DNA of 64,000 nucleotides from Actinomycetota bacterium (GCA_050692915.1 JBOGVU010000004.1:1968-65967), one strand, 5' to 3'. Positions 3,318 to 54,151 are shown, counted from the first letter of the stretch. Program-made: numbers and translations. Notes: generated from the sequence alone by a model not told the origin.

Positions 3318-4409
3318 ATGAGCGAACCAACGACGACGGTTGAGGCACCCAGGCGCCGGCTGTTCCTGGAGCGGGTGCCGTGGCGGGCCATCATCCTGAT
3401 CGGGCTGAGCGCGGTGCTCCTTCTGGGCATCGTCCTGGGGACGGCGTCGACGCTCCAGGAGGGCCGGTTCACCGGGGCCAACTGGAGCCGGCTGATCGTG
3501 GGCGGGGTGACCCGAGGCAGTGTCTACGCCATCATCGCCGTGGGGTACACCCTGGTGTACGGGATCCTCTTCCTGATCAACTTCGCCCACGGCGAGGTGT
3601 TCATGGCCGGGGCATTCAGCACGCTGTTCGTGGCCCGGGCCCTGGACGAGGCGGGGACGCTCAACAGCAGCCCGATCCTGTCGATCGGCATCCTCTTCGC
3701 GTCCTCGATGCTGATCTCCATGGTCGTGGCCATCGTGCTGGAGCGAGTCGCCTACCGGCCCCTCAGGGGATCGCCTCGGCTGATCCTCCTGATCACCGCG
3801 ATCGGGGCGTCCCTGTTCCTCCAGAACAGCTTCCGAGGGTTCTTCGGCGCGAGCTCGACGGCCTATCCGAGGATCGAGATCCTGGCGGGGGAGATGTCGA
3901 TCCTCGGGGTGGCGATCGCCCGCAAGCAGCTGATCGTGATCGTCGGGGCGCTCGTTCTGATGGTGGGCCTGTACCTCTTCATCGAACGAAGCAAGACGGG
4001 GCGGGCGATGCGGGCCGTGGGCGAGGACAAGGAGATCGCCGCGCTCATGGGAATCGACGTCGATCGGGTCATCGTGACCACGTTCGCCGTCGGCGGCCTT
4101 CTGGCCGGGGCGGCCGGGATCCTGTTCGTGTTCGTGTTCAACCAGGTGAACTACTTCATGGGATTCGTCCCGGGCATCAAGGCCTTCACCGCCGCGGTGC
4201 TCGGCGGGATCGGGAACGTGCTGGGTGCGGGCATCGGGGGCATCGCGCTGGGCGTGCTGGAGAGCGTGGGGCCCCGGCTGATCCTGACCGGCGCCCACGT
4301 CCCTTCGCCGGACCAGCTCCAGCCCGTGGTGGCGTTCGGGGTCCTGGTCCTGGTCCTGCTCTTCCGGCCGGGCGGGATCCTCGGCGCCGAGGAAGAGAAG
4401 AGGGCGTGA
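3318..4409 (+). CDS. livH: branched-chain amino acid ABC transporter permease LivH
   Basis: Multi-TM permease with the LivH-typical INFAHGEVFMAGAF segment. Confidence 0.9.
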   Translation: MSEPTTTVEAPRRRLFLERVPWRAIILIGLSAVLLLGIVLGTASTLQEGRFTGANWSRLIVGGVTRGSVYAIIAVGYTLVYGILFLINFAHGEVFMAGAFSTLFVARALDEAGTLNSSPILSIGILFASSMLISMVVAIVLERVAYRPLRGSPRLILLITAIGASLFLQNSFRGFFGASSTAYPRIEILAGEMSILGVAIARKQLIVIVGALVLMVGLYLFIERSKTGRAMRAVGEDKEIAALMGIDVDRVIVTTFAVGGLLAGAAGILFVFVFNQVNYFMGFVPGIKAFTAAVLGGIGNVLGAGIGGIALGVLESVGPRLILTGAHVPSPDQLQPVVAFGVLVLVLLFRPGGILGAEEEKRA

Positions 4410-4410
4410 G

Positions 4411-6474
4411 ATGGCCGCGGTGACGGAGACGGTCCGGGTCGAGCGGGGCCAGGTCCCCCCGGGCAGCGCGATCCGTCGGGGCGTTCGCAGCGGGTTCCTC
4501 GGTGGGCTGATCTTCATCTACCTGTCCGCCGTGGGGCTGGTGGAGCGGTTCAACGACACGAACGTGATCACGGACGTGCTCTCCCTGGGCCCCACGTTCT
4601 TCCTGGGGGCCATGCTGTTCGCCGGGTACCTGGCGGCCAGGGACCGCAAGGTCGAGGGAGAGATCTTCGCGGTGTCGGCCCGGGACCGGCTGGTAGCCGG
4701 GGTCGTAGCCGGGGCCCTCACCGGAGCGATCGCCGCCGCGTTCGTCCTGCTGTTCAACGCCGTGGACGTTCGGGACATCTTCGTGTCGCTGTCCCCGGTC
4801 CTCATGAGCGACGTCCTGACTCTCGGCCAGGAGCCGGCCGTGGGCGCACTCCTCCAGCTGGGGGTGGCCACGGCCCTGGGCACCCTGGGGGCGGCCCTGC
4901 GGCTGGTGGACCCCCGGAACCGCAAGGTGTTCCTGGCGGCCGTGGGGACGATGCTGATCGTCGGCGTCCTGGAGCGTCTGCTCCGGGTCATGCTGGACAA
5001 TCTGGGCCTGGAGACCTCGTGGCTGTACCGCCGTGGGGGCCTGACCGTTTCTGGCGCCATCGGCATGTTCGTCCTGGGGGGCGTGGTCAGCTACCTGACC
5101 ACCCATCGCGAGGCGATCCTCCAGCGGCTGGCGGGCGAGCGCCGGACGGGGGGCGACCAGGGCGGGGTCCTGCCGCCGAGCACCCAGGAGAGCCTGGCCT
5201 TCGGTCTCGGCCTGGCCTCGCTGGCCCTTTCCGCGATCCTGGCCGTTCAGGGGCTGCTGCAGGAGGAGAGCTCCGGCCTCTTGCTGATCCTGGCGCTGGC
5301 GCTCGGGCTGGTGGCCATCGGCGTGGCCGCAGTCACGGTGCGGAAGCGAACCGGCGGTGGCGCCCGGGGCACCATGAAAGCCGGTCGGGCGGGGATCGGG
5401 TTCTTCGCCGCGGTGGCGGGGGTGTTCGCCATCGTCCCCTTGATCGTGGGGGTGTTCCTCAGCCACGCCATGGTCACCGTGGGGATCTACGTGCTGTTGG
5501 GGCTAGGTCTGAACATCGTGGTCGGGTACGCCGGGCTGCTCGACCTCGGGTACGTGGCCTTCTTCGCCGTGGGGGCCTACAGCATGGCCCTGTTCACGGC
5601 CCTCCAGTCCAGCCTGGTGACCGAGGGCGTGGGAGAGTTCGGGAGCGGCTCCCAGGTCGCCGCGGAGCAGCCGTTCACGAACTTCTGGGTGGCCCTGCCC
5701 CTGGTGATCGCCATCGCCGTGCTGGCCGGGGTGCTGATCGGGGCGCCGGTCCTTCGGCTACGCGGGGATTACCTGGCCATCGTGACCCTGGGGTTCGGGG
5801 AGATCGTCCGGGTCATCGTCCGGTCCGACTGGGCCGCCTCGTTCCTGGGGGGCTCCCAGGGGATCAAGCAGATCCAGCCGCCGACACCGGAGGTGCTGGA
5901 CTTCGGGAATCCCCAGAACCTGTACTACCTCGTCCTGGTGTTCATCCTGCTGGCGATCTATGTCTCCTGGCGGCTCCAGTATTCGCGAGTGGGACGGGCC
6001 TGGGCGGCCATGCGGGAGGACGAGGACGTGGCGGAGGCCATGGGAGTTAGCGTGATCAAGTACAAGCTGCTGGCGTTCGCCATGGGGGCCGCCGTGGGCT
6101 GCCTCTCGGGCGCGTTCTTCGCCGTGCAGCTCTCCGTGATCACGCCGGACAGCTTCGAGCTGCTGGTGTCGATCACCGTGCTGGCCGCCATCATCCTCGG
6201 GGGCCTGGGCAGCATCCCCGGCGTCATCGTGGGCGCCGTCGTCCTGGTGGGGCTCCCCGAGGTCCTGCGCGACTTCGCCGAGTACCGCCTGCTGTTCTAC
6301 GGGGCCATCCTGGTCGGCATCATGATCCTGCGGCCCGAGGGTCTCATCGCCAGCGCCCGACGCCGCCGCGAGCTTCACGAACGTGTGGCCGAGGAGGCCC
6401 AGTTCGGAGGGGAGTTCGCAGTGGGTGAAGCGGCCTTGACCGCCAATCCCGGAGAGGCGAGGCGGGAGCCATGA
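4411..6474 (+). CDS. livM: branched-chain amino acid ABC transporter permease LivM with ~350-aa N-terminal membrane extension
   Basis: The C-terminal half is LivM-like ([33 protein letters not shown]). Start codon abuts the livH stop (TGA-G-ATG). Confidence 0.85.
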
Positions 6475-7253
6475 GCCTGCTCGAGGTGAAGGATCTGTCG
6501 AAGCGGTTCGGCGGTCTGGCGGCCGTGGACGACGTCGACTTCCATGCCGATGAGGGAGAGATCGTCAGCGTGATCGGCCCGAACGGGGCCGGCAAGACCA
6601 CCCTATTCAACATCGTCACGGGCTTCTACGAACACGAGCAGGGGACCGTCGGGTTCGACGGCCACAACATCGCCGGCCTCAAGCCGAACCAGATCACCAA
6701 GCTGGGCATCTCCCGGACGTTCCAGGCCGTCCGGCTGTTCCCGGCCATGAGCGTGTTGGAGAACGTCATGGTGGGCCAGCACAGCCGGAGTCATTCTGGA
6801 GTCTTCGGTACGATCCTCCGGCTCCCGGCGACCATCAAGGAGGAGCGGCGGATCGAGGAGAAGGCCCGGGAGATGCTGGCGTTCTTCGGGACCGCCCTCC
6901 TGCCCCGGGCCGACGAGCTCGCGGCCGGGCTGGCGTACGCGGACCGCCGTCGGCTGGAGATCGCCCGGGCCATGGCCACGGAGCCGAAGCTGCTGCTGCT
7001 GGACGAGCCCACGGCCGGGATGAACGCCCGCGAGAAGGAGGAGGTCATCGACCTGGTCAGCCGGCTTCGCCGGGAGCGTGGCTACACGGTCGTCCTGATC
7101 GAACACGACATGCCGGTGGTCAAGGGCGTCTCCGACCGCGTGGTGGCCCTCGACTTCGGAAGGAAGATCGCCGAGGGGACCTATGACGAGGTCGCGAGCA
7201 ACGAGAGGGTGATCGAAGCGTACCTGGGAACCGAGCACGAGGAGAGCGCATGA
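6471..7253 (+). CDS. livG: branched-chain amino acid ABC transporter ATP-binding protein LivG
   Basis: Walker [10 protein letters not shown], LivG-type N-terminus, ATGA overlap with livM. Confidence 0.9.
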
Positions 7254-7975
7254 CGGCGGACGGCGCACCCGTCTTGGAGCTCCAGGGGGTTCACGCCAGC
7301 TACGGCGCGGTCCGGGTGCTCACCGACGTCAGCCTGGAGGTCCGCCGGGGGGAGATCGTGTGCCTGCTCGGCCCGAACGCCGCGGGGAAGACCACCACGC
7401 TGCGGGCCATCCTGGGGCTCACCCCCCCTCGGGCCGGCCGGATCCATGTGGAGGGGGAGCGGGTCGACGGCCTTCCCACGCCGAGGATCGTGGCCAAGGG
7501 GATCACTATGGTGCCCGAGAACCGGCGGCTCTTCGCCAGGATGAGCGTGCGGGAGAACCTGGAGATCGGGGCACAGCTGCGGAAGGACACCGAGGGTATC
7601 CAGCGGGATCAGGACCGGGTCCTCGAGCTGTTTCCGCGCCTGCAGGAGCGGCTGTCCCAGCGAGCCGGCACGCTGTCCGGAGGCGAGCAGCAGATGCTGG
7701 CCATCGGACGGGCGCTGATGGCGGACCCGAAGGTTCTGCTGATGGACGAGCCGTCGATGGGCCTGGCACCGATCCTGGTGGAGCAGGTCTTCCAGAGGAT
7801 CAAGGAGATCAACAAGCAGGGCACTACGATCTTCTTGGTAGAGCAGAACGCCAAGATGGCCCTGTCGATCGCCGACCGTGGCTACATCCTCAGGGGCGGG
7901 GAGGTCGTCATGGCAGACACGGCCCAGGCGCTGCGCGACAGCCCGCAGATGCAGGAGGCCTACCTGGGCGGGTGA
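7250..7975 (+). CDS. livF: branched-chain amino acid ABC transporter ATP-binding protein LivF
   Basis: Walker A GPNAAGKTT, signature LSGGEQQML, ATGA overlap with livG. Confidence 0.9.
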   Translation: MTADGAPVLELQGVHASYGAVRVLTDVSLEVRRGEIVCLLGPNAAGKTTTLRAILGLTPPRAGRIHVEGERVDGLPTPRIVAKGITMVPENRRLFARMSVRENLEIGAQLRKDTEGIQRDQDRVLELFPRLQERLSQRAGTLSGGEQQMLAIGRALMADPKVLLMDEPSMGLAPILVEQVFQRIKEINKQGTTIFLVEQNAKMALSIADRGYILRGGEVVMADTAQALRDSPQMQEAYLGG

Positions 7976-12790: not shown

Positions 12791-12870
12791 GAAAGCGCGC
12801 ACCGACCAACTAGCATTCCCCCAAGCGGCCGTCCCCCGGCCGCCCGGGACGGGACATGAAGGGAGGCGAC

Positions 12871-13722
12871 GTGGCGACACGGAAGGCTCGACTGCTCATG
12901 GGGGTTCTCTTCTCGCTGGTGCTGGTGGCCGGGGCCTGCGCGGAGGAGGAGCCCATCGAACCGGGCGCGGGGGCGGATGAGACCGAATCCCCCACCCCGG
13001 AGTTCACCACGCTCACCGAGGGGGTCCTGGCGGTCGGCTCGTGCCTGGACTTCCCGCCGTTCGAGTCGGTCGAGGGGGGCGACGAGGTCGGGTTCGACGT
13101 CGACCTGATCGAGGAGATCGCCACCCGACTCGGCCTGGAGGTCGAGTGGGTCCGGGCCGACTTCGACACGATCTTCACGGCCGTGGCCGGCGGCGAGTTC
13201 GACGTGGTGGCCGCGGCCTCGACCATCACGGAGGAACGCGAGCAGGTCGTCGACTTCTCCGAGCCCTATTACAACTCCCGGCAGTCCCTGATCGTAAATA
13301 CGGAGGAGACCCCGGACATCGCCGGCGTCGCGGACATCGGCGAGGGCGACGTGATCGGCGTCCAGCGAGGGACCACCGGCAAGGCCTGGGCAGAGGACAA
13401 CCTCGTGCCCCAGGGAGCGGAGATCCGGACGTTCCAGGGGGCGCCCGCGGCCTTCCAGGACCTGGCCGCTGGCGGGGTGACGGCGGTGGTCAACGATGAG
13501 CCTTCCTCCGCGGAGATCATCGAGAGCCTCCCGGGGCTGGAGATCGTGGAGGCCATCGACACGGACGAGAAGTACGGGTTCGCCTTCTCTCCGGAGAACC
13601 CCGAGCTCACCGACGCCGTCAACCAGGCCCTGGCGGAGATCATCGCCGATGGGACGTACCAGGAGATCTTCCAGAGGTACTTTCCCGGCGTAGAGGTCCC
13701 GCCGGAGTTCCAGCCCTCCTAG
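12871..13722 (+). CDS. polar amino acid ABC substrate-binding lipoprotein (SBP_bac_3). Alternative ATG start at 12856
   Basis: RBS AAGGGAGG precedes GTG 12871. Lipobox LVAGAC. SBP_bac_3-like body. Confidence 0.75.
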   Translation: MATRKARLLMGVLFSLVLVAGACAEEEPIEPGAGADETESPTPEFTTLTEGVLAVGSCLDFPPFESVEGGDEVGFDVDLIEEIATRLGLEVEWVRADFDTIFTAVAGGEFDVVAAASTITEEREQVVDFSEPYYNSRQSLIVNTEETPDIAGVADIGEGDVIGVQRGTTGKAWAEDNLVPQGAEIRTFQGAPAAFQDLAAGGVTAVVNDEPSSAEIIESLPGLEIVEAIDTDEKYGFAFSPENPELTDAVNQALAEIIADGTYQEIFQRYFPGVEVPPEFQPS

Positions 13723-13789
13723 CGGCGCGCGGCGAAGGGGGCCCGTCCGACTGCGGGCGGGCCCCCTTCTCGTTCTCGGAGGCGGATCG

Positions 13790-14902
13790 ATGGCCGTGAC
13801 CAAGGAACAGGGCAGCCAGCTGGACCAGCTGGAGTCCCCGGCCGAGCGACGGCTGGCCCGGTCGGCGGCCATGATCCTGGGCATCGGCATCGCCTCCATC
13901 GGGTTGGCCCTGGGAGGGACCGTGGTGTCGACCCTGGCAAACGGCATCGTCCCCTACCGGCGGTTGGTGGAGGGGCTGCTGTCCACGCCCACCGCGGTGA
14001 TCCTCGACATCGGCCTCGGCCTGGGCGCGGTGGCCATCGCCCTCGGCTTCGCCATGTACGGTCGGATGCCCACCAAGCGGTCCCGGGAGCAGTCCATCGC
14101 CGGGGCCGTCCTGGGGATCCAGGCGGTGGTCGTCGGGCTCATCATCCTGGCGTTCCGGACCTTCGGGGACCCCGACCTGTTCATCAAGCTGTTCTTCAAC
14201 GCCGGGATCCTGGAGGGCCACCTGGGCGCGTTCATCCGGGGAGCCCTGAACACCGTCATCCTGGCCCTTACCGGTGAGGTGGGCGGGATCATCGTGGGGC
14301 TCTTCCTGGCCATGCTGGCCATGTCCAAGCGGGCCGTGGTTCGGGCCCCCGCCCGCGTGTACATCAACTTCTTCCGGGGCACGCCGCTGATCTGGCAGCT
14401 CTCGGTGTTCTACTTCGGGTTCGCCATCGGGCTGGGGATCCGCCCGGCCATCGAAATCGGGCCCATCCAGCTCTCCGCCCCCTACACGATCGCGGTCATC
14501 GTGTTCGTCCTGAACACGGGGGCGTACGCTGCCGAGGTGTTCCGGGCCGGGATCCAGTCGATCGAGCGGGGCCAGCTGGAGGCGGCCCGGTCCCTGGGCA
14601 TGTCCTACGCCCAGGCCATGCGGTACGCGGTGGTCCCTCAGGCGGTCCGGCGAGTCATCCCCCCGCTGATGAACGAGTTCGTGATCCTGATCAAGGACAC
14701 GTCTCTCGTGCTTGTGCTCGGTTTGGCCGTGGGGGAGCTGGAGCTGTACACGACCGCCCGGGAGGGGTACTCGGACACGTTCAACGCCTCGTTCTTCACC
14801 GCGGCGGCCATCGGCTACCTGGCCATCACCCTGCCGTCGATCTGGGCCGTGAACAGGCTCGAGCGCCGGCTGCGCAGCGGCCTCGTCGGGGTCGGAGCGT
14901 GA
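13790..14902 (+). CDS. amino acid ABC transporter permease (HisM/GlnP family) with ~150-aa N-terminal TM extension
   Basis: C-terminal half matches polar-amino-acid permeases (FFRGTPLIWQLSVFYFG…EAARSLGMS). Confidence 0.8.
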   Translation: MAVTKEQGSQLDQLESPAERRLARSAAMILGIGIASIGLALGGTVVSTLANGIVPYRRLVEGLLSTPTAVILDIGLGLGAVAIALGFAMYGRMPTKRSREQSIAGAVLGIQAVVVGLIILAFRTFGDPDLFIKLFFNAGILEGHLGAFIRGALNTVILALTGEVGGIIVGLFLAMLAMSKRAVVRAPARVYINFFRGTPLIWQLSVFYFGFAIGLGIRPAIEIGPIQLSAPYTIAVIVFVLNTGAYAAEVFRAGIQSIERGQLEAARSLGMSYAQAMRYAVVPQAVRRVIPPLMNEFVILIKDTSLVLVLGLAVGELELYTTAREGYSDTFNASFFTAAAIGYLAITLPSIWAVNRLERRLRSGLVGVGA

Positions 14903-15633
14903 GCGGGCCCCTGGTCCGACTGGAGGGCGTGCACAAGTGGTTCGGATCCCTCCACGTCCTCAAGGGGATCGACCTCCAGGTGGAGCCCCGAGAGGTGGTG
15001 GTGGTCATCGGACCGTCCGGGTCCGGGAAGTCCACCCTCCTCCGCACAATGAATCTGCTCGAAGAGCCCACGGAGGGGAGGGTGTGGTTCGAGGACGTCG
15101 AGCTCACCGACGTCCGGACGAACCTCAACAGGGTCCGGACCCAGCTGGGCATCGTGTTCCAGGCGTACAACCTGTTCCCTCACAAGACGGCGGTCCAGAA
15201 CATCACGGTGGCCCTGGAGAAGGTCCTTGGGCTCGACCACGGGCAGGCCCTGGAGGCGGCCCGCAAGGAGCTGGACCACGTCGGGCTGGCCCACAAGGCC
15301 GACACCCATCCGGGTCGGCTCTCGGGCGGGCAGCAGCAGCGGGTGGCCATCGCCCGGGCCCTGGCCATGCGCCCCAAGGTGATGCTCTTCGACGAGGTCA
15401 CCTCTGCTCTCGACCCCGAGCTGATCCAGGAGGTGCTCGATGTGATGAAGGCCCTGGCGTCGGAGGGGACGACCATGGTCGTGGTCACCCACGAGATGGG
15501 CTTCGCCAGGGAAGCCGCCACTCGCATGGTGTTCCTGGACGAGGGCCAGGTCCTCGAGGATGGCGATCCGCGCCGAATGTTTGATCGGCCGGAGCATCCG
15601 CGTCTGCGGCGGTTCCTCCACCGGATCCTGTGA
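14899..15633 (+). CDS. amino acid ABC transporter ATP-binding protein (GlnQ-like)
   Basis: Walker A GPSGSGKST, signature LSGGQQQRVAIARAL, ATGA overlap with the permease. Confidence 0.9.
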   Translation: MSGPLVRLEGVHKWFGSLHVLKGIDLQVEPREVVVVIGPSGSGKSTLLRTMNLLEEPTEGRVWFEDVELTDVRTNLNRVRTQLGIVFQAYNLFPHKTAVQNITVALEKVLGLDHGQALEAARKELDHVGLAHKADTHPGRLSGGQQQRVAIARALAMRPKVMLFDEVTSALDPELIQEVLDVMKALASEGTTMVVVTHEMGFAREAATRMVFLDEGQVLEDGDPRRMFDRPEHPRLRRFLHRIL

Positions 15634-15980
15634 GTCGGACGGTCCTGCTGCTCCTGGTCGTCCTGACGGCCTGCCGAAGCGATACGGGGCCCGACCCCGA
15701 CGCTCGCCCCTACGTGGTGACGGCCATCGACTACCACTTCCACGACGCCCACCCCTCGCTGGCGATCCCCCTGGACCGGGCCGTCCAGTTCAGCAACCAG
15801 GGCCGGAACCCCCACAACGTCACCATCGAGGGGACGGACTACGACCGGACCATCCAGCCCGGCGAGCGGATCACGATCGACCCGATCGGGTCCCTGCTCC
15901 CCGAACCCGGCCGATACGCGTTCGTCTGCAGGCTCCACGCGGATCGGGGGATGAGCGGGGTGCTGGTGCTGGTGGAATAG
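15630..15980 (+). CDS. small cupredoxin-like (type-1 copper) lipoprotein
   Basis: Lipobox VLTAC. Candidate copper ligands His (HFHD) … Cys-x2-His-x4-Met (FVCRLHADRGM). ATGA overlap with the upstream ATPase gene. Confidence 0.6.
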   Translation: MSRTVLLLLVVLTACRSDTGPDPDARPYVVTAIDYHFHDAHPSLAIPLDRAVQFSNQGRNPHNVTIEGTDYDRTIQPGERITIDPIGSLLPEPGRYAFVCRLHADRGMSGVLVLVE

Positions 15981-29199: not shown

Positions 29200-29477
29200 C
29201 CCTCTGACCGGGGATTCGGACACATCTGCCGGAGAGGGGTCCCTCCGCCGGAGGTCCGACTTGTTCACCCGACCGACAGCGGGTTAGGGTTCGTTTCCAT
29301 CCTCGAGCGCCCGCACCGGGAGGGAGCACGATCAGGATCGCTTGCCGTTCATGGCCCAACGCTTCCGCCGTTGTCCACGTGCGGTGCTTCCCTGAGTATC
29401 CGTCCCGGCCCAGGGATCCTCCGCCGCGAGCCCGAACAAGATTTCCGATGAACGTCGGTCGAACAAGGAGGAAGCGG

Positions 29478-31235
29478 ATGCACCGAAGGATGCGCACGAT
29501 CGTGCTCGTGGGCTCCATGGCCGGATTGCTCAGCTTGCCGTTGGCGGCGGCTGCGGAGCCCCCGCCGGAAGAGGTGAGCACGTTCGACTACACGCAGAAC
29601 ATGCACCCGATGGGTCATTCGGCCCGGATCCCCGTGGGCGGCAGGTTCAACTCGGACCTGGCCTTCTGGGGAAAGACCGCCTACCAGGGCACCTACGAGG
29701 GGTTCCGGATCATCGACATCACCGAGCGGGACAACCCGGTCGAGGTAAACAACTACGCGGAGTGCGCGCCCGGTTCGACGGCCGGGAACCAGGGCGACGT
29801 GATCATCTGGGATGACATCCTGGTCCGATCGTGGAATTCGAACACGGGGGCCGCCGGCAGCTCCTGTGACGGCGACTTCGTTCCGCCGGGGTTCGAGGGC
29901 CTGCACGTCTTCGAAGTCAGCGATCCATCCGATCCCGACCTGATCGCCTCGGTCGACCTCCCCCAGGGGTCGCACACCGCCACGGGCGTGCCGGACCTGG
30001 AGAACGACCGGCTGCTCGTCTACAACTCGGCCTCGAGCGGCGCGAATCCGGGGATCGACATCGTGGAGGTCCCCCTGGACGCGCCGGAGAACGCCGCGTT
30101 CCTCCGGTTCGAGCCGTCCGGCGATCCCACGATCGGCGGTGGGCTGCCGAACCTCGTGACGATCGATCCTCCGTCCTCGGCGGCGGGGGTCTACGGGGCG
30201 ACGGGGGCGGCTTTCGGGCCAGCGCCGACCTCCGGCGGCATCTCCGGCGACATCGAACTGGTCAACGACGGCGTCAGTACCCCGCCGGCCGGCACGCCCA
30301 CCGACGGATGCGAGCCGTTCACGCTGACGGCCGGGGCCATCGCGCTGATCGACCGGGGTACCTGCTCCTTCGTCCAGAAGGCGAGCAACGCGCAGGCGGC
30401 CGGGGCGTCGGCGGTCATCGTGGCCAACAACGTGCCCGGGGCCCCGATCACCATGGGGGGCTCCGACCCGACGATCACGATCCCATCGGTGATGGTGTCG
30501 CTGGACGACGGCAACACCATCAAGGCGGGCCTGCCGGCCCACGCCACCATCACCAGCCACCCGATGCCGCAGCGGTCCTGCCACGACACCGGGGTGATCC
30601 TGGGCGACGCCCTGAAGGCGGCCTGCGCCGGCGGGAACGGGCTCACCGTGTGGAGCATGGACCCCGCCGACGGCGGATCGCTGACCGACCCCCAGATCCT
30701 GTACTCCCGGGCGGTCGAAGGGGTGAGCATCGGGCACTCCGCGTCGTTCACCTGGGACGGAGAGACCGTGATCTTCGGGCACGAGCCCGGTGGTGGTGGT
30801 CAGGCGCAGTGCCAGGCGACGAGCCCTGAGGTCAACAAGACCATGTTCTTCTTCGATGCGGACACGGGAGACGAGGTCGGCCGCTGGGTGCTCCCACGGC
30901 CGCAGACGAACACGGAGAACTGCACGATCCACAACTACAACATCGTGCCCACCGCCAAGCGGGACGTGGTCGTCAGCGGCAACTACCAGTCGGGGATCAG
31001 CGTGGTCGACTTCTCCGACCCCGAGAACGCCGTGGAGGTGGCCTACGCCGACCCGGCCCCGCTCGTGCCCACGGCCACCGGTGGAGACTGGTCGTCGTAC
31101 TGGTACAACGGGATGATCTACGAGTCCGACATCACCAGGGGCTTCACCACCTGGCTGCTCAGCGACAAGGTGGTGGCCGGCGCCATGAAGCTCGGACACC
31201 TCAACCCGCAGACCCAGGAGTTCACCATCGGGTAG
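29478..31235 (+). CDS. secreted LVIVD-repeat beta-propeller protein with inserted PA (protease-associated) domain
   Basis: RBS AGGAGG precedes ATG 29478. Signal peptide. Repeated GFRIIDITERDNP / GISVVDFSDPENA blades. PA-like insert spans roughly 30090-30550. Tandem paralog of the next gene. Confidence 0.7.
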   Translation: MHRRMRTIVLVGSMAGLLSLPLAAAAEPPPEEVSTFDYTQNMHPMGHSARIPVGGRFNSDLAFWGKTAYQGTYEGFRIIDITERDNPVEVNNYAECAPGSTAGNQGDVIIWDDILVRSWNSNTGAAGSSCDGDFVPPGFEGLHVFEVSDPSDPDLIASVDLPQGSHTATGVPDLENDRLLVYNSASSGANPGIDIVEVPLDAPENAAFLRFEPSGDPTIGGGLPNLVTIDPPSSAAGVYGATGAAFGPAPTSGGISGDIELVNDGVSTPPAGTPTDGCEPFTLTAGAIALIDRGTCSFVQKASNAQAAGASAVIVANNVPGAPITMGGSDPTITIPSVMVSLDDGNTIKAGLPAHATITSHPMPQRSCHDTGVILGDALKAACAGGNGLTVWSMDPADGGSLTDPQILYSRAVEGVSIGHSASFTWDGETVIFGHEPGGGGQAQCQATSPEVNKTMFFFDADTGDEVGRWVLPRPQTNTENCTIHNYNIVPTAKRDVVVSGNYQSGISVVDFSDPENAVEVAYADPAPLVPTATGGDWSSYWYNGMIYESDITRGFTTWLLSDKVVAGAMKLGHLNPQTQEFTIG

Positions 31236-31460: not shown

Positions 31461-32864
31461 GTGAGAAGGAGAATCCGATGGTCCACGCTGGCCGTCTCCA
31501 TGACGGCCCTGGTGGCCGTGGGGGTGCCGGCGCAGGCCGACCATGCCACGCGGCCAAGCACCACGAACATCCATGCCCTGGGGCACAGCCCCCAGGAAGG
31601 GACGTTCAGCGTCCCCGATGGACAGCGGGTGATCAACTCCGACATCGCGTTCTGGGGAGACATCGCGTTCAACGGGAACTACAACGGGTTCCGGGTGATC
31701 GACATCTCCGCACCCGGGAACCCGAAGGAGATCTCCCACCCAGAGTGCAATGGTGACCAGGGCGACATCGTGGTCTGGGAGGACATCCTGGTCCGATCGT
31801 GGAACTCGCCGGCCCCGGCGGGACGGACCTGCGACGGTGAGCCGGTGCCGGTGGGCTTCGAGGGCGTGCACGTCTGGGACATCAGCGACCTCGACAACCC
31901 CACGCTGCTCACCGCGGTGGAGTTCAGCGCGGCGGGAGCGGCGCAGCGGGGCACCGCGGACGGCTGCGGCTCCCACACGGCGACGCTGGTCCCCGATCTC
32001 GAGAGCGATCGCCTGCTCGTCTACAGCAACAACTCGTCGGGTGCTGGTCGCCCAGTGTGCGACGCCATGGACATCATCGAGGTGCCCACGGACGATCCGT
32101 CCAGCGCCAGCCACATCGGCTACGTTCCGCTCACCGGCGGCTCGCTCGGCAGCAACAACGGCTGCCACGACGCCGGTGCGATCCTCGGAGACGTCAACAA
32201 GCTGGTGTGCGCCAGTGGCCACGCCGCGAACGTGTTCTCGATCGGCGCGCCCGGCGGTGGCACTCTCGAGAACCCACAGTTCCTCTACACGATCGAGGAA
32301 TCGGATGCGTTCGGGAACAAGGTCGGCATCGGGGGACGGTGGCACTCGGCCGGCTTCACCTGGGACGGGGAGGTCATCGTCCTGGGGTGGGAGCCTGGCG
32401 GTGGCGGCGCGGCAGAGTGCGAGGCCACGGACCCCGACATCAAGAAGAGCATGTTCTTCTACGACGCCGACACCGGGGCCAAGCTCGGCCAGTGGGTGCT
32501 CCCAAACCCGCAGGGGGCCGACGAGAACTGCACGATCCACGTCTACAACATCGTGCCCCTTCGGAGCGGCCGGTACGTCGCGGTGAGCGGGAACTACCAG
32601 GCCGGGACGTGGGCCACCGACTTCACCGACCCGGCCAACCCGGTCACGGTCGGCTGGTCCGACCCGCCCTCGCTCGGGCCCGGCCCCTTCTGCGGCGGGC
32701 AGTGCCAGATCGGCGGTGCGTGGTCGAGCTACTGGTACAACAACTTCATCTACGAGTCGGAGATCCAGGCCGGTCTGAACGTGTTCCGGCTGAGCGACTC
32801 CGCGACCGGCGGAGCGATCAAGCTGGATCACCTGAACCCGCAGACGCAGGAGTTCTCCCTGTAG
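31461..32864 (+). CDS. secreted LVIVD-repeat beta-propeller protein (paralog without PA insert)
   Basis: GTG start with upstream GAGGAGG. Colinear with paralog 1, including conserved Cys positions and the shared C-terminus LNPQTQEF. Confidence 0.7.
   Translation: MRRRIRWSTLAVSMTALVAVGVPAQADHATRPSTTNIHALGHSPQEGTFSVPDGQRVINSDIAFWGDIAFNGNYNGFRVIDISAPGNPKEISHPECNGDQGDIVVWEDILVRSWNSPAPAGRTCDGEPVPVGFEGVHVWDISDLDNPTLLTAVEFSAAGAAQRGTADGCGSHTATLVPDLESDRLLVYSNNSSGAGRPVCDAMDIIEVPTDDPSSASHIGYVPLTGGSLGSNNGCHDAGAILGDVNKLVCASGHAANVFSIGAPGGGTLENPQFLYTIEESDAFGNKVGIGGRWHSAGFTWDGEVIVLGWEPGGGGAAECEATDPDIKKSMFFYDADTGAKLGQWVLPNPQGADENCTIHVYNIVPLRSGRYVAVSGNYQAGTWATDFTDPANPVTVGWSDPPSLGPGPFCGGQCQIGGAWSSYWYNNFIYESEIQAGLNVFRLSDSATGGAIKLDHLNPQTQEFSL

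Positions 32865-35346: not shown

Positions 35347-35348
<2 letters not shown>
35343..35348 (+). promoter_or_regulatory. TACAAT -10 hexamer overlapping/adjacent to the uvrA start (leaderless if translation begins at ATG 35356)
   Basis: Exact TACAAT. Confidence 0.3.
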
Positions 35349-38219
<2,871 letters not shown>

Positions 38220-38223
<4 letters not shown>

Positions 38224-39824
38224 GCCGCCGGGTCTGTGATAGAACACGTCCCGCTGTGCTGAGTCGGCTCGTGCCCGTCCTGGGCATCATCGCGCTGGTG
38301 GCCACGGCCTGCGGTTCGCCCGACATCGTGGTCCGGTCCGGGGAGCCCGAGGGACCCTCGTGGTTCTCGCTGGTGGTGGACTCGACCGGCGATGCCGGGG
38401 CGGGGCTCTCGTTGGCCACGGACGCCGACGGCAACCCCCACCTGGCCTACGTGGCCCTGGAGGAGGAGGTCGAGGGGGAGGCGCCCGCGCCCGACCCGCT
38501 GGCTCCCACGCTCCCGGCGGTGATGCACGCCCACCTTGTGGGGGAAGCCTGGACCCGGGGACCGGTGGCCGAGGAGCAGGAGCTCGACGGGGCGTCGGAG
38601 ACGGCCATCGCCGTCGGCGCCGACGGGGTGCACCACGTGGCCTGGACCGCCGGCGGCCAGGTTCTCTACTCGTCGAACGCCGGCGGCGAGTTCGCCGAGG
38701 AGCGGGAGACGGTGGCCGACATCGGGGCCGTGGGCTTGTCGATCGCCGCCGACGGGGACGGGACGCCCCTGATCGCGTTCCAGACCGCCCTGGATGAGGC
38801 CGAGGGCCCAGCCTCGCTGATCAGGCTGGCCACGCCGGAAGGCGAGGGAGCCTGGACGCTGGAGACCGTGGCGGAGGCGTCCGCGCCGGAGGAGCCGGCC
38901 GGCACGGCGGTCGTCGTCACCCCCGACGGGCCGGTGGTGGCGTTCGGGTCCGACGGGGCCACGCTGGTGGGGGAGCGGCGGGGCACGCGGTGGTTCAGCG
39001 AGACCGTGGACGAGGACGGCGGCGTGGGGATGGCGGGTTCCCCCGACGCCGACGGGAACCCTCACCTGGCGTACCTGACGGGGACCGGCGACGTCAAGCA
39101 CGCCCACTCGATCGATGGCGGGCCGTGGGACGTCTCCGACGTCGGCTCGGGGGCCACCGGCTCCCCGGCCTCGATCGCCCTGGACGCCGAGGGAGTCCAC
39201 CAAATCGCCTGGCAGACCGCCGACGGACTGGCCTACGCCTCGAACGCCGGTGGAGACGAGTTCGCCGAGGAGGAGCTGCCCGCCTCCACGGCCGAGGGCG
39301 TCCGGCCCAGGGTGGGCGCCGGCGCCGACGGGACCGTGTACGTGGCCTTCCGGGACGAGAGCGACACCGAGGTCCAGATGGCCGTCCGCAGCGAGGACGC
39401 CCCCCTCCTGGCGGTGCCCGCCCCCGAGGAGGCTGCGGGCGGCGGGGGTGCCGGGCCGCCGACCGGCCCGCCCCCCTGTGAGCCGGAGGGGACCGAGCTG
39501 GCCATCACCGCCCCGCCCGGAGGGGCGGGAACCGGGTTCGACACGGATTGCTTGGCTGCTCCGGCCGGCGAGGCCTTCACGATCGAATTCGATAACCAGG
39601 ACGACGGAGCAGCCCCGCAGACCCACAACGTCGCCATCTACACAGAACAGCCTCCAGCGGGGCAACCTCTGTTCCAGGGAGAGATCTTCCCCGCACCGGC
39701 CGCAATGACCTATGAGGTCGACCCCATCGACGAGCCCGGCAACTACTTCTTCCAGTGTGACGTTCACCCGACCACCATGACCGGGACGTTCGTGGTAGCC
39801 GTCGCAGACGGCGAAGGCGGCTAG
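38220..39824 (+). CDS. lipoprotein: 7-bladed beta-propeller fused to C-terminal cupredoxin (type-1 Cu) domain
   Basis: Lipobox LVATAC. Seven ~45-aa repeats of the form xDxDGxPH(L/I)A(Y/W/F). C-terminal copper ligands His…Cys-x2-His-x3-Met ([10 protein letters not shown]). GTG 38220 overlaps the uvrA stop; alternative GTG at 38256. Confidence 0.65.
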
Positions 39825-39863
39825 CGGACCGACCGAATCCCTCGCGCTCGCCCGGTGGAGCCC

Positions 39864-39869
39864 TACAAT
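39864..39869 (+). promoter_or_regulatory. TACAAT -10 hexamer 17 nt upstream of the uvrC GTG
   Basis: Exact TACAAT. Confidence 0.3.
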
Positions 39870-39886
39870 GGGGCCGGACGGGCAGC

Positions 39887-41761
39887 GTGACCGACGACAT
39901 CCCGAGACCGGACCCGGCTTCTGTCCCCGACGCCCCGGGGGCGTACCTCTTCCGTGACCGTGACGGCCGGGTCATCTACGCGGGGAAGGCCAAGTCCCTC
40001 CGGAAGCGGCTGGGCGCGTACTGGGGCCGTCCCCTCCATCCCCGGACCGAGGCCATGGTGGAGGCGGCCGACCGGGTCGAGTGGATCGTGGCCTCCGGCG
40101 AGGTGGACGCCCTCCACCTCGAGTACAACCTGATCCAGGAGCACCGCCCTCGGTTCAACGTCCGGTACCGGGACGACAAGTCGTATCCGTACCTGGCGCT
40201 CACCGTGGCCGAGCGGTGGCCCCGGGCCATGGTGACCCGGTCGAAGCGGCGGAAGGGCATGCGGTCGTTCGGCCCGTACGCCCACGCGTACGCGATCCGG
40301 GAGACCCTGGACGCCCTCACCCGGGTGTTCCCCGTCCGGACCTGCTCGAACGGCTTCTTCGACCAGCGGCGCCGGGCCGGCCGGCCGTGCCTCTACTACG
40401 ACATCGGCCGGTGCGCCGGGCCGTGCGTGCCGGAGAAGACCGGCGTGACCGATGAGGGATACCGCGAGCACGTGGACCGGCTGGCCGACTTCCTGGCCGG
40501 AAACCACCGTCCCATCCTCCGGGAGCTGGAGGTGGAGATGCGTTCGGCCTCCGCGACCGAGGAGTACGAGAAGGCCGCCCGGTTCCGGGACCGCCTCACT
40601 GCCGCCGGGAAGGCCATCGAGTCCCAGGAGATGGTGCTGTCCCAGCGGGAGAACCTCGACGTGATCGGGCTCGACGAGGACGATCTGGAGGCGGCGTTCC
40701 AGGTGTTCTTCGTCCGGCGGGGCCGGGTCACCGGCCGCCGGGGCTGGGTGGTGGACCGGGTCGAGGATCTCGACGCGCCGGCGCTGGTGTCCTCGTTCCT
40801 GGAGCAGCTGTACATGGAGCGCGACGAGGTCCCCGCCCGGGTGCTGGTGCCGGTGTGGCCGCGGGACCGCGATGTACTGGAGGAGTGGCTGTCCGGTCGC
40901 CGGGGAAGCGCCGTGCGCATCGCCCTCCCGGAGCGGGGGGACAAGCGTCGCCTCCTCCAGGTGGTGACCACCAACGCGAGGGAGGCCTTCCTCCGCCACA
41001 AGCTGAAGCGGGCCTCGGACTTCGCGGCCCGATCCCGGGCTCTGGCCGAGCTCGGCGAGGCCCTCGGGCTGGCCCAGCCGCCGCTGCGGATCGAGGCGTA
41101 CGACGTTTCGAACATCGGTCCGACGGCAACCGTGGGCTCGATGGTGGTGTTCGAGGACGGCCTCCCGAAGCGCTCCGACTACCGCCGGTTCGAGATCAAG
41201 GGCGTCCCCGGGCAGGACGATATCGCCTCCATGGAGGAGATGCTCCGGCGGCGGTTCACCCGGTACCTCAGGGAGCTAGACGAGCCGGTGGCGAAGCGGC
41301 GCCGGTTCGCCTACCCGCCCTCGCTGGTCGTGGTGGACGGCGGGCGGGGCCAGCTGAACGTGGCCCTCCGGGTCCTGGATGAGCTCGGCCTCGATGTCCC
41401 CGCGATCGGCCTGGCCAAGCGGCTGGAAGAGGTGTACCTACCCGGGCAGCCGGAGCCGCTCCGGATAGGCCGGGGCTCGGAGGCGCTGTTCGTCCTCCAG
41501 CACGTCCGGGACGAGGCCCACCGGTTCGCGGTCGACTACCACCGGCGGCTCCGGGAGCGCCGGGCCATGGCCTCGCCGCTCGACGAGGTGCCGGGGATCG
41601 GCCCGGCCAGGAAGAAGGCCCTGCTCCGGCAGTTCGGCTCGCTGGCCCGGCTGGCCCGGGCCTCGGAGGAGGAGATCGCGGCCACCCCGGGGGTGGGCCC
41701 CCGCCTGGCCGCCGAGGTCGCGTCTCGCCTCCACCGGCCTTCCGAGGCGGCCTCGGCGTGA
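39887..41761 (+). CDS. uvrC: excinuclease ABC subunit C
   Basis: GIY-YIG N-terminus (GAYLFRDRDGRVIYAGKAKSLRKRL), UVR domain, and C-terminal RNase H-like and HhH regions. Confidence 0.9.
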   Translation: MTDDIPRPDPASVPDAPGAYLFRDRDGRVIYAGKAKSLRKRLGAYWGRPLHPRTEAMVEAADRVEWIVASGEVDALHLEYNLIQEHRPRFNVRYRDDKSYPYLALTVAERWPRAMVTRSKRRKGMRSFGPYAHAYAIRETLDALTRVFPVRTCSNGFFDQRRRAGRPCLYYDIGRCAGPCVPEKTGVTDEGYREHVDRLADFLAGNHRPILRELEVEMRSASATEEYEKAARFRDRLTAAGKAIESQEMVLSQRENLDVIGLDEDDLEAAFQVFFVRRGRVTGRRGWVVDRVEDLDAPALVSSFLEQLYMERDEVPARVLVPVWPRDRDVLEEWLSGRRGSAVRIALPERGDKRRLLQVVTTNAREAFLRHKLKRASDFAARSRALAELGEALGLAQPPLRIEAYDVSNIGPTATVGSMVVFEDGLPKRSDYRRFEIKGVPGQDDIASMEEMLRRRFTRYLRELDEPVAKRRRFAYPPSLVVVDGGRGQLNVALRVLDELGLDVPAIGLAKRLEEVYLPGQPEPLRIGRGSEALFVLQHVRDEAHRFAVDYHRRLRERRAMASPLDEVPGIGPARKKALLRQFGSLARLARASEEEIAATPGVGPRLAAEVASRLHRPSEAASA

Positions 41762-42678: not shown

Positions 42679-43260
42679 GTGAGCCGCGCCCTGGCGCTTG
42701 CGCTCGTCGCGCTGACAGTGGCGTGCGACGGGCCTGACGGTGGGTCGGGGCCGTCGGATGCCGGCGGCTCCGGTCTGGCCCCGGTGGTGCTCCGGGCCGG
42801 CGAGGTCCCCGAGGGGCTGGAGCCGGACCAGGCCGGGCCGATCGCGTCGATCCGGGACGTCCTGCCCCTGAGGCGGCGGTTTCCGAACCTCCCCCCGCTC
42901 GCGGACGGGCTCGCGGAGGGGTTCGTGGAAGGGTACCGGCGATCGTTCGCCGGCCCCGACGGCGCGGCGTCCTCCACGGTGGTCCGCATGGCTGACCCGA
43001 CGGTCGCCTCGGCCCTGGTCGCCTACCTCCGGCTGCTCCCGGTGGGGGGGCACGCCGGGACGCCAGAGGAGGTGCCGGCCACCGGCCTCGGGGAGAAGGG
43101 GTACGGGTGGCGCCTCCTGGTCCCCCGGCGCGAGTCGTCCGGCTACGTGTGGCGGTCGGGCGACCTGGTGGCCGCGGTGACGCTCAGCGGCCCGGTGGGC
43201 CGGGCGAACCCCGAGGCCTCCCTACCCCTGGCCGAACGGGTGGACGAACGCCTGGCCTGA
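42679..43260 (+). CDS. hypothetical lipoprotein (occupies the place of yvcK/whiA)
   Basis: GTG start. Lipobox LTVAC. Confidence 0.5.
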   Translation: MSRALALALVALTVACDGPDGGSGPSDAGGSGLAPVVLRAGEVPEGLEPDQAGPIASIRDVLPLRRRFPNLPPLADGLAEGFVEGYRRSFAGPDGAASSTVVRMADPTVASALVAYLRLLPVGGHAGTPEEVPATGLGEKGYGWRLLVPRRESSGYVWRSGDLVAAVTLSGPVGRANPEASLPLAERVDERLA

Positions 43261-52650: not shown

Positions 52651-53900
52651 GCGTCACTGCACGCCGGCCCGGCCCCGGCTCCGACGGAGAGCCACTGGTC
52701 CGGTTGCGCGGGGTGAAGAAGTACTTCCCGATCACCCGGGGCATCATCCTCCAGCGCAAGGTCGGTCAGGTCCATGCCGTCGACGGGATCGACCTCGAGA
52801 TCCCCGCGGGCGAGACCTTCGGGCTCGTGGGGGAGACGGGCTGTGGGAAATCCACCACGGCCCGCCTGGTCACGCGTCTGCTCGACGCGACCGAGGGGTC
52901 GATCGAGTACGACGGCAAGGACATCACACGCCTGAGCCGCCGGAGGATGCGGCCCCTCCGACGGGAGATCGCCATGATCTTCCAGGACCCGTACGCCTCG
53001 CTGAACCCGCGGAAGACGGTGGGCTCGATCATCGGGGAGCCGTTCCAGATCCACGGCCTGGCCGGACGGACCGGGATGGGCAGCCCCTGGGCCTCCCCGG
53101 CCGCCCGGCTGGTGGGGCCCCTGATCGCGCTGGCGGCCCTCGTGATCGCGGTGGTGGCGGGGTTCTCCGCATCGATCGAGGTCCCCCTGGCGCTCCCGTT
53201 CGGGCTGCTGGGCCTGGCGATCCTGGTGGAGGTGCTTCGCCGGCTCCTGGCCCTCCCGGCCCGGCGGAGGTGGAACCGGGAGGTCCGGACGGAGGTCCAG
53301 CGGCTGATGGAGCTCGTCGGCCTCAACCCCGAGCACTACAACCGGTTCCCCCACGAGTTCTCGGGCGGCCAGCGCCAGCGGATCGGGGTGGCCCGGGCCC
53401 TGGCGCTCCGGCCTCGCCTCATCGTCTGCGACGAGCCGGTGTCCGCGCTCGACGTCTCGATCCAGGCCCAGATCCTGAACCTGCTGGAGGATCTGCAGGA
53501 GGAGTTCCACCTGACCTACCTGTTCATCGCCCACGACCTGTCGGTGGTGAAGCACATGAGCGACCAGGTGGCGGTGATGTATCTGGGTCGGATCGTGGAG
53601 ATCGCGCCGGGGGAGACGCTCTATGTGAACCCCAAGCACCCCTACACCGGCGCCCTGTTGTCCGCGGTCCCCATCCCCGATCCCGAGCTCGCCGCCCAGC
53701 GGCACCGCATCATCCTGGAGGGCGATGTGCCCTCGCCGATCGACCCCCCCTCCGGTTGTCGGTTCCATCCCAGGTGCCCGAGGGCGCAATTCCCGGTGTG
53801 CAAGGAGGACGACCCGAGGCTCACGCCGCACCACCGGGGCCAGCTCGCCGCGTGCCACTTCCCTCTAGAGGACCGGGCCGTGATAGAGTCCACGGCCTGA
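52647..53900 (+). CDS. dppF: peptide ABC transporter ATP-binding protein DppF/OppF with ~70-aa hydrophobic in-frame insertion
   Basis: Walker [10 protein letters not shown], signature FSGGQRQRI. Extra segment …[72 protein letters not shown]… (nt ~53061-53276) sits between the Q-loop and the signature. Confidence 0.85.
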
Positions 53901-53926
53901 AGGCCCAAGTTCGGAAGGGATCCACC

Positions 53927-54151
53927 ATGCTGATCGCCACCGTCATCGTGCTCCAGGTGATCTCCGCCATCCTGATGGTGCTGTTCATCCTGCTCCACGC
54001 GGGACGAGGCGGGGGCCTGTCCGACATGTTCGGCGGAGGGTCCGGTCTGGCCGGCGGCACCGCGGTCGAGCGGAACCTCGACCGGGTCACCGTGGCCACG
54101 GCCGTCGTCTTCGCGGTGACCACGTTCTACCTCGCCTGGAAGTGGGTGTAG
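53927..54151 (+). CDS. secG: preprotein translocase subunit SecG
   Basis: 74 aa, two TM segments, glycine-rich loop HAGRGGGLSDMFGGGSG. Confidence 0.8.
   Translation: MLIATVIVLQVISAILMVLFILLHAGRGGGLSDMFGGGSGLAGGTAVERNLDRVTVATAVVFAVTTFYLAWKWV

Follow-up and report, generated by a model that had tools for sequence, protein, structure and literature searches.

A 64,000-nucleotide stretch of DNA from an Actinomycetota bacterium (GCA_050692915.1, JBOGVU010000004.1:1968-65967), hereafter the window, has a high G+C content (about 0.65-0.73) and carries an open reading frame on the plus strand (38220-39824; 534 amino acids (aa), open throughout) between uvrA (35347-38223) and uvrC (39887-41761), the latter being followed by rapZ. 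The frame, already noticed at this place in the first-pass annotation, encodes a predicted lipoprotein in which a seven-bladed beta-propeller is joined to a C-terminal cupredoxin domain. Its most likely start is the GTG at 38256, and residues are numbered below in the resulting 522-aa form unless the 534-aa form, which is 12 residues longer, is indicated. The gene is real, conserved and uncharacterised, and it comes from an uncultured soil actinobacterial lineage. The positions of its features are collected in Table 1.

Table 1. Features of the propeller-cupredoxin gene and its flanks (window coordinates).
Feature	Coordinates	Strand	Details and basis
Most likely coding sequence	38256..39824	+	522 aa followed by a TAG stop; starts of the relatives align with it; NCBI annotation of 522 aa
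Predicted lipoprotein signal peptide with lipobox Cys19 (Cys at 38310-38312)	38256..38312	+	Cys conservation; pattern match
Seven-bladed, four-stranded beta-propeller	38355..39395	+	residues ~34-380; blades arranged 3+1+3; blade 7 completed by the first strand
His triad A: H91 and H93 (MHAHL, blade 1), H126 (GVHHVAW, blade 2)	38526..38633	+	
His triad B: H282 and H284 (KHAHS, blade 5), H315 (GVHQIAW, blade 6)	39099..39200	+	
Pro/Gly-rich flexible linker	39396..39476	+	residues 381-407; variable in length and composition among relatives
Type-1 copper cupredoxin domain	39477..39803	+	domain model, Foldseek, PDB profile and conserved ligands
Predicted copper ligands	H457 39624-39626; C501 39756-39758; H504 39765-39767; M508 39777-39779	+	alignment
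Putative extended -10-like element TGATAGAAC (TGn + TAGAAC)	38237..38245	+	10 nucleotides upstream of the start; conservation
Putative uvrC -10-like element TACAATGGGG	39864..39873	+	conservation; outside the propeller-cupredoxin gene

Relatives were compared in alignments of 25 sequences (down to 51% identity) and 104 sequences, and in a 158-sequence family set. The claim that the protein is a lipoprotein agrees with a lipobox, LVATA-C19, whose Cys is found in 156 of the 158 relatives, the other two being gapped at that column. The window sequence fits the Gram-positive lipoprotein pattern; many database entries fail the strict pattern through truncated start calls or a Ser at position -1. 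The protein is thus predicted from its sequence to be lipid-anchored at the outer face of the cytoplasmic membrane, with a 14-residue tether between the lipobox Cys and the propeller.

AlphaFold2, run with the 104-sequence alignment, modelled the whole protein with a mean predicted local distance difference test (pLDDT) score of 90.2 and a predicted template modelling (pTM) score of 0.73. The model consists of a signal-peptide helix, 28 strands (residues 35-379), a low-pLDDT segment and a C-terminal beta-sandwich; the strands form seven four-stranded blades, the first strand completing the last blade. The ~45-aa repeat motifs quoted in the first-pass annotation are present in the translation, and residues ~41-193 align with residues ~250-387 (BLOSUM62 local score of 209), an internal duplication to which the 3+1+3 arrangement of the blades corresponds. 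Structure prediction, which had been put forward as a check of the proposed architecture, therefore supports the seven-bladed fold. The linker that follows has pLDDT values below 50 at residues 389-403, within a disordered stretch of about 25 residues.

Modelled alone, the C-terminal domain reached a pLDDT of 90.1. Its top Foldseek matches are the auracyanins (6kol, 1qhq and 2aan; E 7e-7 to 5e-5, template modelling (TM) score about 0.66), followed by rusticyanin, plastocyanins and pseudoazurin (overall E up to 2e-4, probability 1.00, TM 0.5-0.67), and all of these nearest solved structures are single-domain electron carriers. At the sequence level the Pfam Cupredoxin_1 match is below threshold (residues 439-526, E 4.4e-5, 23.9 bits against a cut-off of 27), and a PDB sequence profile retrieved auracyanin A and 6kol with 18-20% identity, a weak match (E 3e-4, about 60 residues) that marks the auracyanins as the nearest solved relatives without making membership in the same family clear. 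The putative copper ligands are constant: none of the 158 relatives lacks H457 or the Asn that follows it (N458), and the Cys-His-Met ligand loop is complete wherever the propeller-cupredoxin architecture occurs. The loop reads C501-x2-H504-x3-M508 in the window protein; 113 relatives have a loop spacing of x3, 39 have x2 and one has x4. The lipobox Cys, His469-Asn470, Cys513, His516 and Met520 (534-aa numbering) are invariant in the 25-sequence alignment, as are two Cys on either side of the point where the C-terminal domain begins, and the 104-sequence alignment agrees; C408 and C432 probably form a disulfide within the domain. The two Cys and the His...Cys-x2-His-x3-Met ligands of the first-pass annotation are hence borne out, and a loss of ligands in orthologues, which had been named beforehand as a ground for refutation, was not seen. 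As judged from sequence and model, the C-terminal domain is a type-1 (blue) copper cupredoxin with a predicted copper site.

The closest solved counterparts, the auracyanins of Chloroflexus and Roseiflexus (6kol, 1qhq, 2aan), have a single type-1 site with His-Cys-His-Met ligands like the window cupredoxin, which differs from them in its low identity (~20%), in its shorter loop (C-x2-H-x3-M), in a tether that contains a propeller and in its origin from Actinomycetota. Auracyanins are one-electron carriers held at the outer face of the membrane by an N-terminal tether.

The best structural matches of the propeller are sugar-binding propellers, foremost the PLL lectins of Photorhabdus, and not NosZ. 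Identity of the window propeller to the Photorhabdus PLL/PHL seven-bladed lectins, GH145, PL42/BNR_4 and sialidases is 10-16%. Membership in Pfam BNR_4 (PF15892; GH145/PL42-type) was rejected, the propeller scoring 11.2 bits (E 0.23) against a gathering cut-off of 27.3. The propeller positions conserved across the family are mostly Gly, Pro, Trp, Tyr and Ala, together with H127; universal conservation of polar residues is limited to H127 and the repeat motif's Asp, and the GNPH His is part of the ancestral repeat signature. Four distant members (L025, L026, L029 and P0158) carry a CxxC pair (e.g. ARCSSCP, TGCADCP, AGCETCR) in blade 4, where the window protein has SAPEEPAG (about 38880-38905); these Cys may form an additional disulfide or bind a metal.

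A search of 5.8 billion proteins returned 228 matches, of which the best 120 are nearly all full-length (about 500-540 aa). Named matches bear automatic labels alone ("cupredoxin domain-containing protein" or "plastocyanin"), and the metagenome-assembled genomes (MAGs) are designated Actinomycetota bacterium. When the propeller profile alone was searched against 1.84 billion cluster representatives, 14,705 were found at E<=1e-3, many of them giant multi-repeat proteins, and the DxxGNPH[IL]AY type of repeat is widespread in surface and giant repeat proteins. Stand-alone propeller proteins with the same type of repeat occur in an Opitutales MAG and in a Saccharibacteria MAG; the latter protein has a lipobox and is the sole relative that passes the BNR_4 cut-off. 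The profile matches also include dozens of proteins of ~500-610 aa, and ten of ten that were scanned carry a C-terminal Cupredoxin_1 domain. By these sequence comparisons the architecture is kept well beyond the close relatives. Within the window the protein has no paralogue, a weak match (E 0.22) to a small cupredoxin being the only one. Two departures were seen among relatives: a distant member (L029, 5956-7941) has two tandem cupredoxin domains after the propeller, and in P0128 the cupredoxin is swapped for another subtype with a C-x4-H-x4-M loop (CNVPGHYIGGM) behind the same propeller.

The architecture proposed in the first-pass annotation, a lipoprotein with a seven-bladed propeller and a type-1 copper cupredoxin, is upheld by the alignments and by AlphaFold2. 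Its description as novel was overstated, as more than 150 sequence clusters of the family are already present in public databases; full-text searches returned neither a characterised family member nor a paper on a fusion of a type-1 cupredoxin with a propeller, NosZ being the sole described propeller-plus-cupredoxin protein returned. A literature search for "PDIAV lipoprotein" gave nothing relevant, and membership in NCBIfam NF053835 (PDIAV motif-containing lipoprotein) was rejected (29.4 bits against a cut-off of 90, over residues 313-387 only).

Two sets of three His stand out in the propeller, each composed of an HxH on a blade's third strand and a His that starts the second strand of the next blade. 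Among the 158 relatives, triad A has all three His in 125, none in 22 and a partial set in 11, and the corresponding figures for triad B are 117, 21 and 20. The triads were lost independently, five sequences keeping A alone and five keeping B alone. The strand register of the model would bring the His of the triads together in space near the same face of the propeller. The pattern of retention suggests that the triads are functional units, which may be metal sites or ligand pockets similar to those that PLL lectins have between their blades. The family can do without them, since members without triads retain the architecture and the copper ligands, and in L029 the synteny as well.

The first-pass annotation had started the protein at the GTG at 38220, which overlaps the uvrA stop codon as GTGA, and had proposed that its translation is coupled to that of uvrA. 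The overlap is present; as a start codon, however, this GTG is very unlikely, because the relatives start at residue 13 of the 534-aa form (GTG 38256, where several use ATG), the NCBI annotation (MGH2655349.1) has the 522 aa that match this start, the distance between the uvrA stop and the start varies from 13 to 105 nucleotides (nt) across 29 loci, and a conserved -10-like motif lies inside the extension. The 12 extra residues are not conserved and the extension is not kept in frame. No Shine-Dalgarno-like sequence was found before 38256, which likewise argues against 38220 as the start.

Directly before the conserved start lies TGATAGAAC. GTGATAGAA or a one- or two-base variant of it is found 7-11 nt before the start in 25 of the 29 loci, regardless of the distance to uvrA, and the four most distant loci have TAGAAT, TAGGAT or TAATAT at the same place. 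In three loci the uvrA stop codon itself supplies the TGA of the motif, and in the window the sole exact copy of GTGATAGAA is the one at 38236-38244. From this conservation we infer an extended -10 element (TGn + TAnnnN), that is, a promoter of the gene's own, and, since the element stands directly before the start, an mRNA that would be leaderless or very short-leadered. A near-copy, GTGATAGAG, is located in another intergenic region (53880-53929), about 35 nt before an ATG at 53927 that has a GGAAGGG ribosome-binding site; it fits the motif as a general promoter element of this organism. On inspection, TGTGATAGAACA was rejected as a LexA box (GAAC-N4-GTTC) and as a CRP-like site (TGTGA-N6-TCACA) or cop box: the second half-sites are mismatched and the flanks are not conserved.

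The gene belongs to a housekeeping block with the order uvrB ... uvrA, propeller-cupredoxin gene, uvrC, rapZ, gap, pgk and tpi. uvrA precedes it in 28 of the 28 fetched loci with enough upstream DNA, as well as in L051, and uvrC and then rapZ follow it in 27 of the 27 with enough downstream DNA; it is single-copy in every genome examined. Across the loci the identity is 36-77% for the propeller-cupredoxin protein, 77-97% for UvrA and 72-95% for UvrC, which makes the gene a fast-evolving member of the block, a divergence as expected for an exposed surface protein. Shortly before the uvrC start, nearly all loci (L001-L033) have CCTACAATGG or CCTAGAATGG, which suggests that uvrC may also be leaderless or short-leadered in this lineage. 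As each gene seems to be served by a promoter of its own, with no mechanistic link in evidence, we read the place between uvrA and uvrC as inherited gene order. In three loci (L006, L009 and L024) an insertion of 1.1-1.2 kb separates the gene from uvrC.

We propose that the protein is a lipid-anchored, auracyanin-like one-electron carrier with a docking propeller, expressed from its own near-leaderless promoter within an inherited gene order, a joint reading to which we give a roughly even chance of holding. The cupredoxin would be a mobile one-electron carrier kept on a leash by the flexible linker. The propeller would serve as a non-catalytic, fast-evolving, lectin-like platform that docks the protein on a membrane complex or a cell-envelope ligand and in this way sets the partners that the copper domain can reach. 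The gene would be transcribed from the extended -10 promoter ~10 nt before GTG 38256 into a near-leaderless mRNA, with no coupling to uvrA. An extracytoplasmic electron-transfer role is plausible by analogy, since the cupredoxin is auracyanin-like and has an intact ligand set.

Several observations weigh against this proposal. No redox partner genes were found within about 10 kb, so the carrier role leans on the analogy with auracyanins, and the model, with a pTM of 0.73, does not allow a judgement on how the two domains are placed relative to each other. Both triads are kept or lost as units, beyond the needs of a pure scaffold. Three of five loci of stand-alone cupredoxins adjoin multicopper oxidases and DUF305, which points to copper handling and not to respiration. 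A consensus promoter and terminator scan of 37900-40100 found neither, leaving conservation as the ground for the promoter, and the -10-like hexamer is without the usual final T in most loci; the scan missed the element because it demands a -35 hexamer as well as T as the sixth base of the -10 hexamer.

The triads bear most directly on an alternative in which the protein is a self-contained extracytoplasmic copper enzyme, with one or two mononuclear three-His sites in inter-blade pockets of the propeller. The triads would hold copper or a substrate, for instance a sugar, and the tethered type-1 copper would feed or remove electrons, following the logic of NirK and NosZ (an electron-entry copper and a catalytic copper) on an unrelated scaffold. 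The bimodal occurrence of the triads (all three His or none) and their independent losses speak for it, as does the strict retention of the propeller-cupredoxin pairing even where the type of cupredoxin was exchanged. Copper or zinc is typically bound by arrangements of this kind, with an HxH on a strand and a His from the adjoining blade, and the ligand sites of the PLL lectins lie between blades. However, each triad is wholly lacking in about 13-14% of the members and both are lacking in 13, and the triad-less members keep the architecture and the copper ligands, as well as the synteny in those examined at locus level, such as L029. That the His cluster in space depends on the modelled strand register, the bimodality may stem partly from shared ancestry, and the propeller matches that of no known copper enzyme in sequence or fold. 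We consider an enzyme of this kind unlikely, and a new cell-surface cuproenzyme in which the type-1 domain serves the blade 1/2 and blade 5/6 triads as mononuclear sites for copper or substrate distinctly doubtful; if true, it would be a cuproenzyme on a lectin-like propeller, e.g. an oxidase for envelope or soil carbohydrates or small molecules.

The stand-alone cupredoxins bring in a further alternative, that of a copper-homeostasis protein whose cupredoxin would bind Cu(I) at the cell surface or oxidise it there, acting like CopI or like a partner of a multicopper oxidase, with the propeller as a mere anchor. The closest stand-alone relatives of the module are small cupredoxins (L034-L048), either lipoproteins or LPXTG proteins, from Acidimicrobiia, Chloroflexia and other Actinomycetota; they are 44-50% identical to it and share with the window protein the ligand loop and a C-x-P-x-G-T...D-x-C-L-A motif that includes both Cys. 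They differ from it in having no propeller and in their His- or Met-rich N-termini, are often encoded beside multicopper oxidases and are uncharacterised too. The multicopper oxidase that adjoins three of the five stand-alone loci has three domains, and one of these loci also has DUF305. In L039, L040 and L043 (about 4100-7800) small cupredoxin lipoproteins lie beside such oxidases, with DUF305 in L040; these look like copper-stress loci in Acidimicrobiia. CopI, a periplasmic green cupredoxin with a His-Cys-His-Met site, acts in copper tolerance, and a conserved internal His/Met-rich region is reported to be crucial for the resistance it confers; like the window protein, it is a single extracytoplasmic cupredoxin with these ligands (PMC13308877). 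Membership in the CopI group was rejected, there being no His/Met-rich segment between H457 and C501. The window protein as a whole has no His/Met-rich segment, no copper-resistance gene was found within about 10 kb, and the gene is single-copy in a housekeeping block in all genomes examined, unlike accessory metal-resistance genes. A role in copper homeostasis is accordingly rather improbable.

Much less probable is that the gene starts at GTG 38220 and is coupled through GTGA to uvrA, which would tie a surface redox protein to nucleotide excision repair. In its favour, the overlap is present, with a frame that is open from 38220 onward, a few close relatives (P0007, P0012 and P0018) permit a similar extension, and the gene order uvrA-gene-uvrC holds in all loci with enough flank (28 and L051 upstream, 27 downstream). 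Against this stand the variable gap to uvrA, an extension whose frame is not maintained, the ATG of many relatives at the 38256 position together with the 522-aa NCBI annotation, a -10-like element that falls inside the proposed extension, a conserved -10 of uvrC's own and the three loci with an insertion before uvrC; the proposed translational coupling is not sustained. Two unrelated small cupredoxin genes also follow genes of the DNA-repair type, one (L045, 2494-6309) directly after a UvrD/PD-(D/E)XK helicase-nuclease and the other (L048, 3941-6318) directly after an impB/mucB/samB (Y-family polymerase-like) gene; this adjacency recalls the setting between uvrA and uvrC, yet it may be coincidence and was given no weight.

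The second cupredoxin of the window, a small lipoprotein (15630-15980), presents a different case. The first-pass annotation had described it as similarly coupled to an ATP-binding cassette (ABC) ATPase. It has an H...C-x2-H-x4-M set and a Pfam Cupredoxin_1 score of 30.5 bits, above the cut-off, and its gene stands fourth in a cluster (12856-15980) for a polar-amino-acid ABC transporter with binding protein, permease and ATPase. The 4-nt GTGA overlap with the ATPase gene is kept in two relatives (L052 and L053, 72-74% identity), and on this comparison the start-stop coupling looks real, unlike that of the propeller-cupredoxin gene.

NosZ has the same domain order as the window protein, an N-terminal seven-bladed propeller and a C-terminal cupredoxin, and uses a Tat-type signal peptide, whereas that of the window protein is of the Sec/lipoprotein type. 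In NosZ the cupredoxin holds a binuclear CuA site with two Cys, and seven His at the propeller's hub hold the CuZ cluster (PMC11573801). A divergent NosZ, or an enzyme of the thiocyanate-dehydrogenase type, whose hub would hold a His-ligated multi-copper cluster, a reading favoured by the domain order and by two consecutive His in blade 2 and none in blade 4, as in NosZ (PMC11573801), is almost certainly wrong: the type-1 site has a single Cys (loop CDVHPTTM) in place of the two of CuA, the seven hub His are missing, the conserved His of the window propeller lying on second and third strands, not the innermost, and being mostly lost in remote members (H127 is kept), and the PDB sequence profile matched no NosZ chain even at E<=10, nor was there a preferential fold match; such an identity was rejected for thiocyanate dehydrogenase as well, with no sequence or fold match.

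Elsewhere in the neighbourhood, two paralogous secreted proteins (29379-31235 and 31461-32864) are encoded between uvrB and an NTP-transferase gene; they share their N- and C-terminal regions, both ending in ...HLNPQTQEF, and in the near-identical contig L004 the first of the pair carries a PA domain. After rapZ, a position that is held by yvcK and whiA in many Actinobacteria, lies a gene for a 193-aa lipoprotein (42679-43260; LTVAC lipobox) with no Pfam match, which is kept at 44-78% identity in several related loci.

The locus offers a comparative example of near-leaderless genes with their own -10 elements packed among DNA-repair genes, and a warning that a 4-nt start-stop overlap should not be taken for coupling when the longest open reading frame alone is considered. 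Blue copper proteins are textbook electron carriers, and nearly all of them either are small and consist of one domain or belong to well-known enzymes. Here a blue copper domain is fused to a lectin-like seven-bladed propeller and is encoded by a single-copy gene in a widespread uncultured lineage of soil actinobacteria. The fusion would represent either a new way to position an electron carrier on a monoderm cell's surface or, with lower likelihood, a copper enzyme of a new kind.

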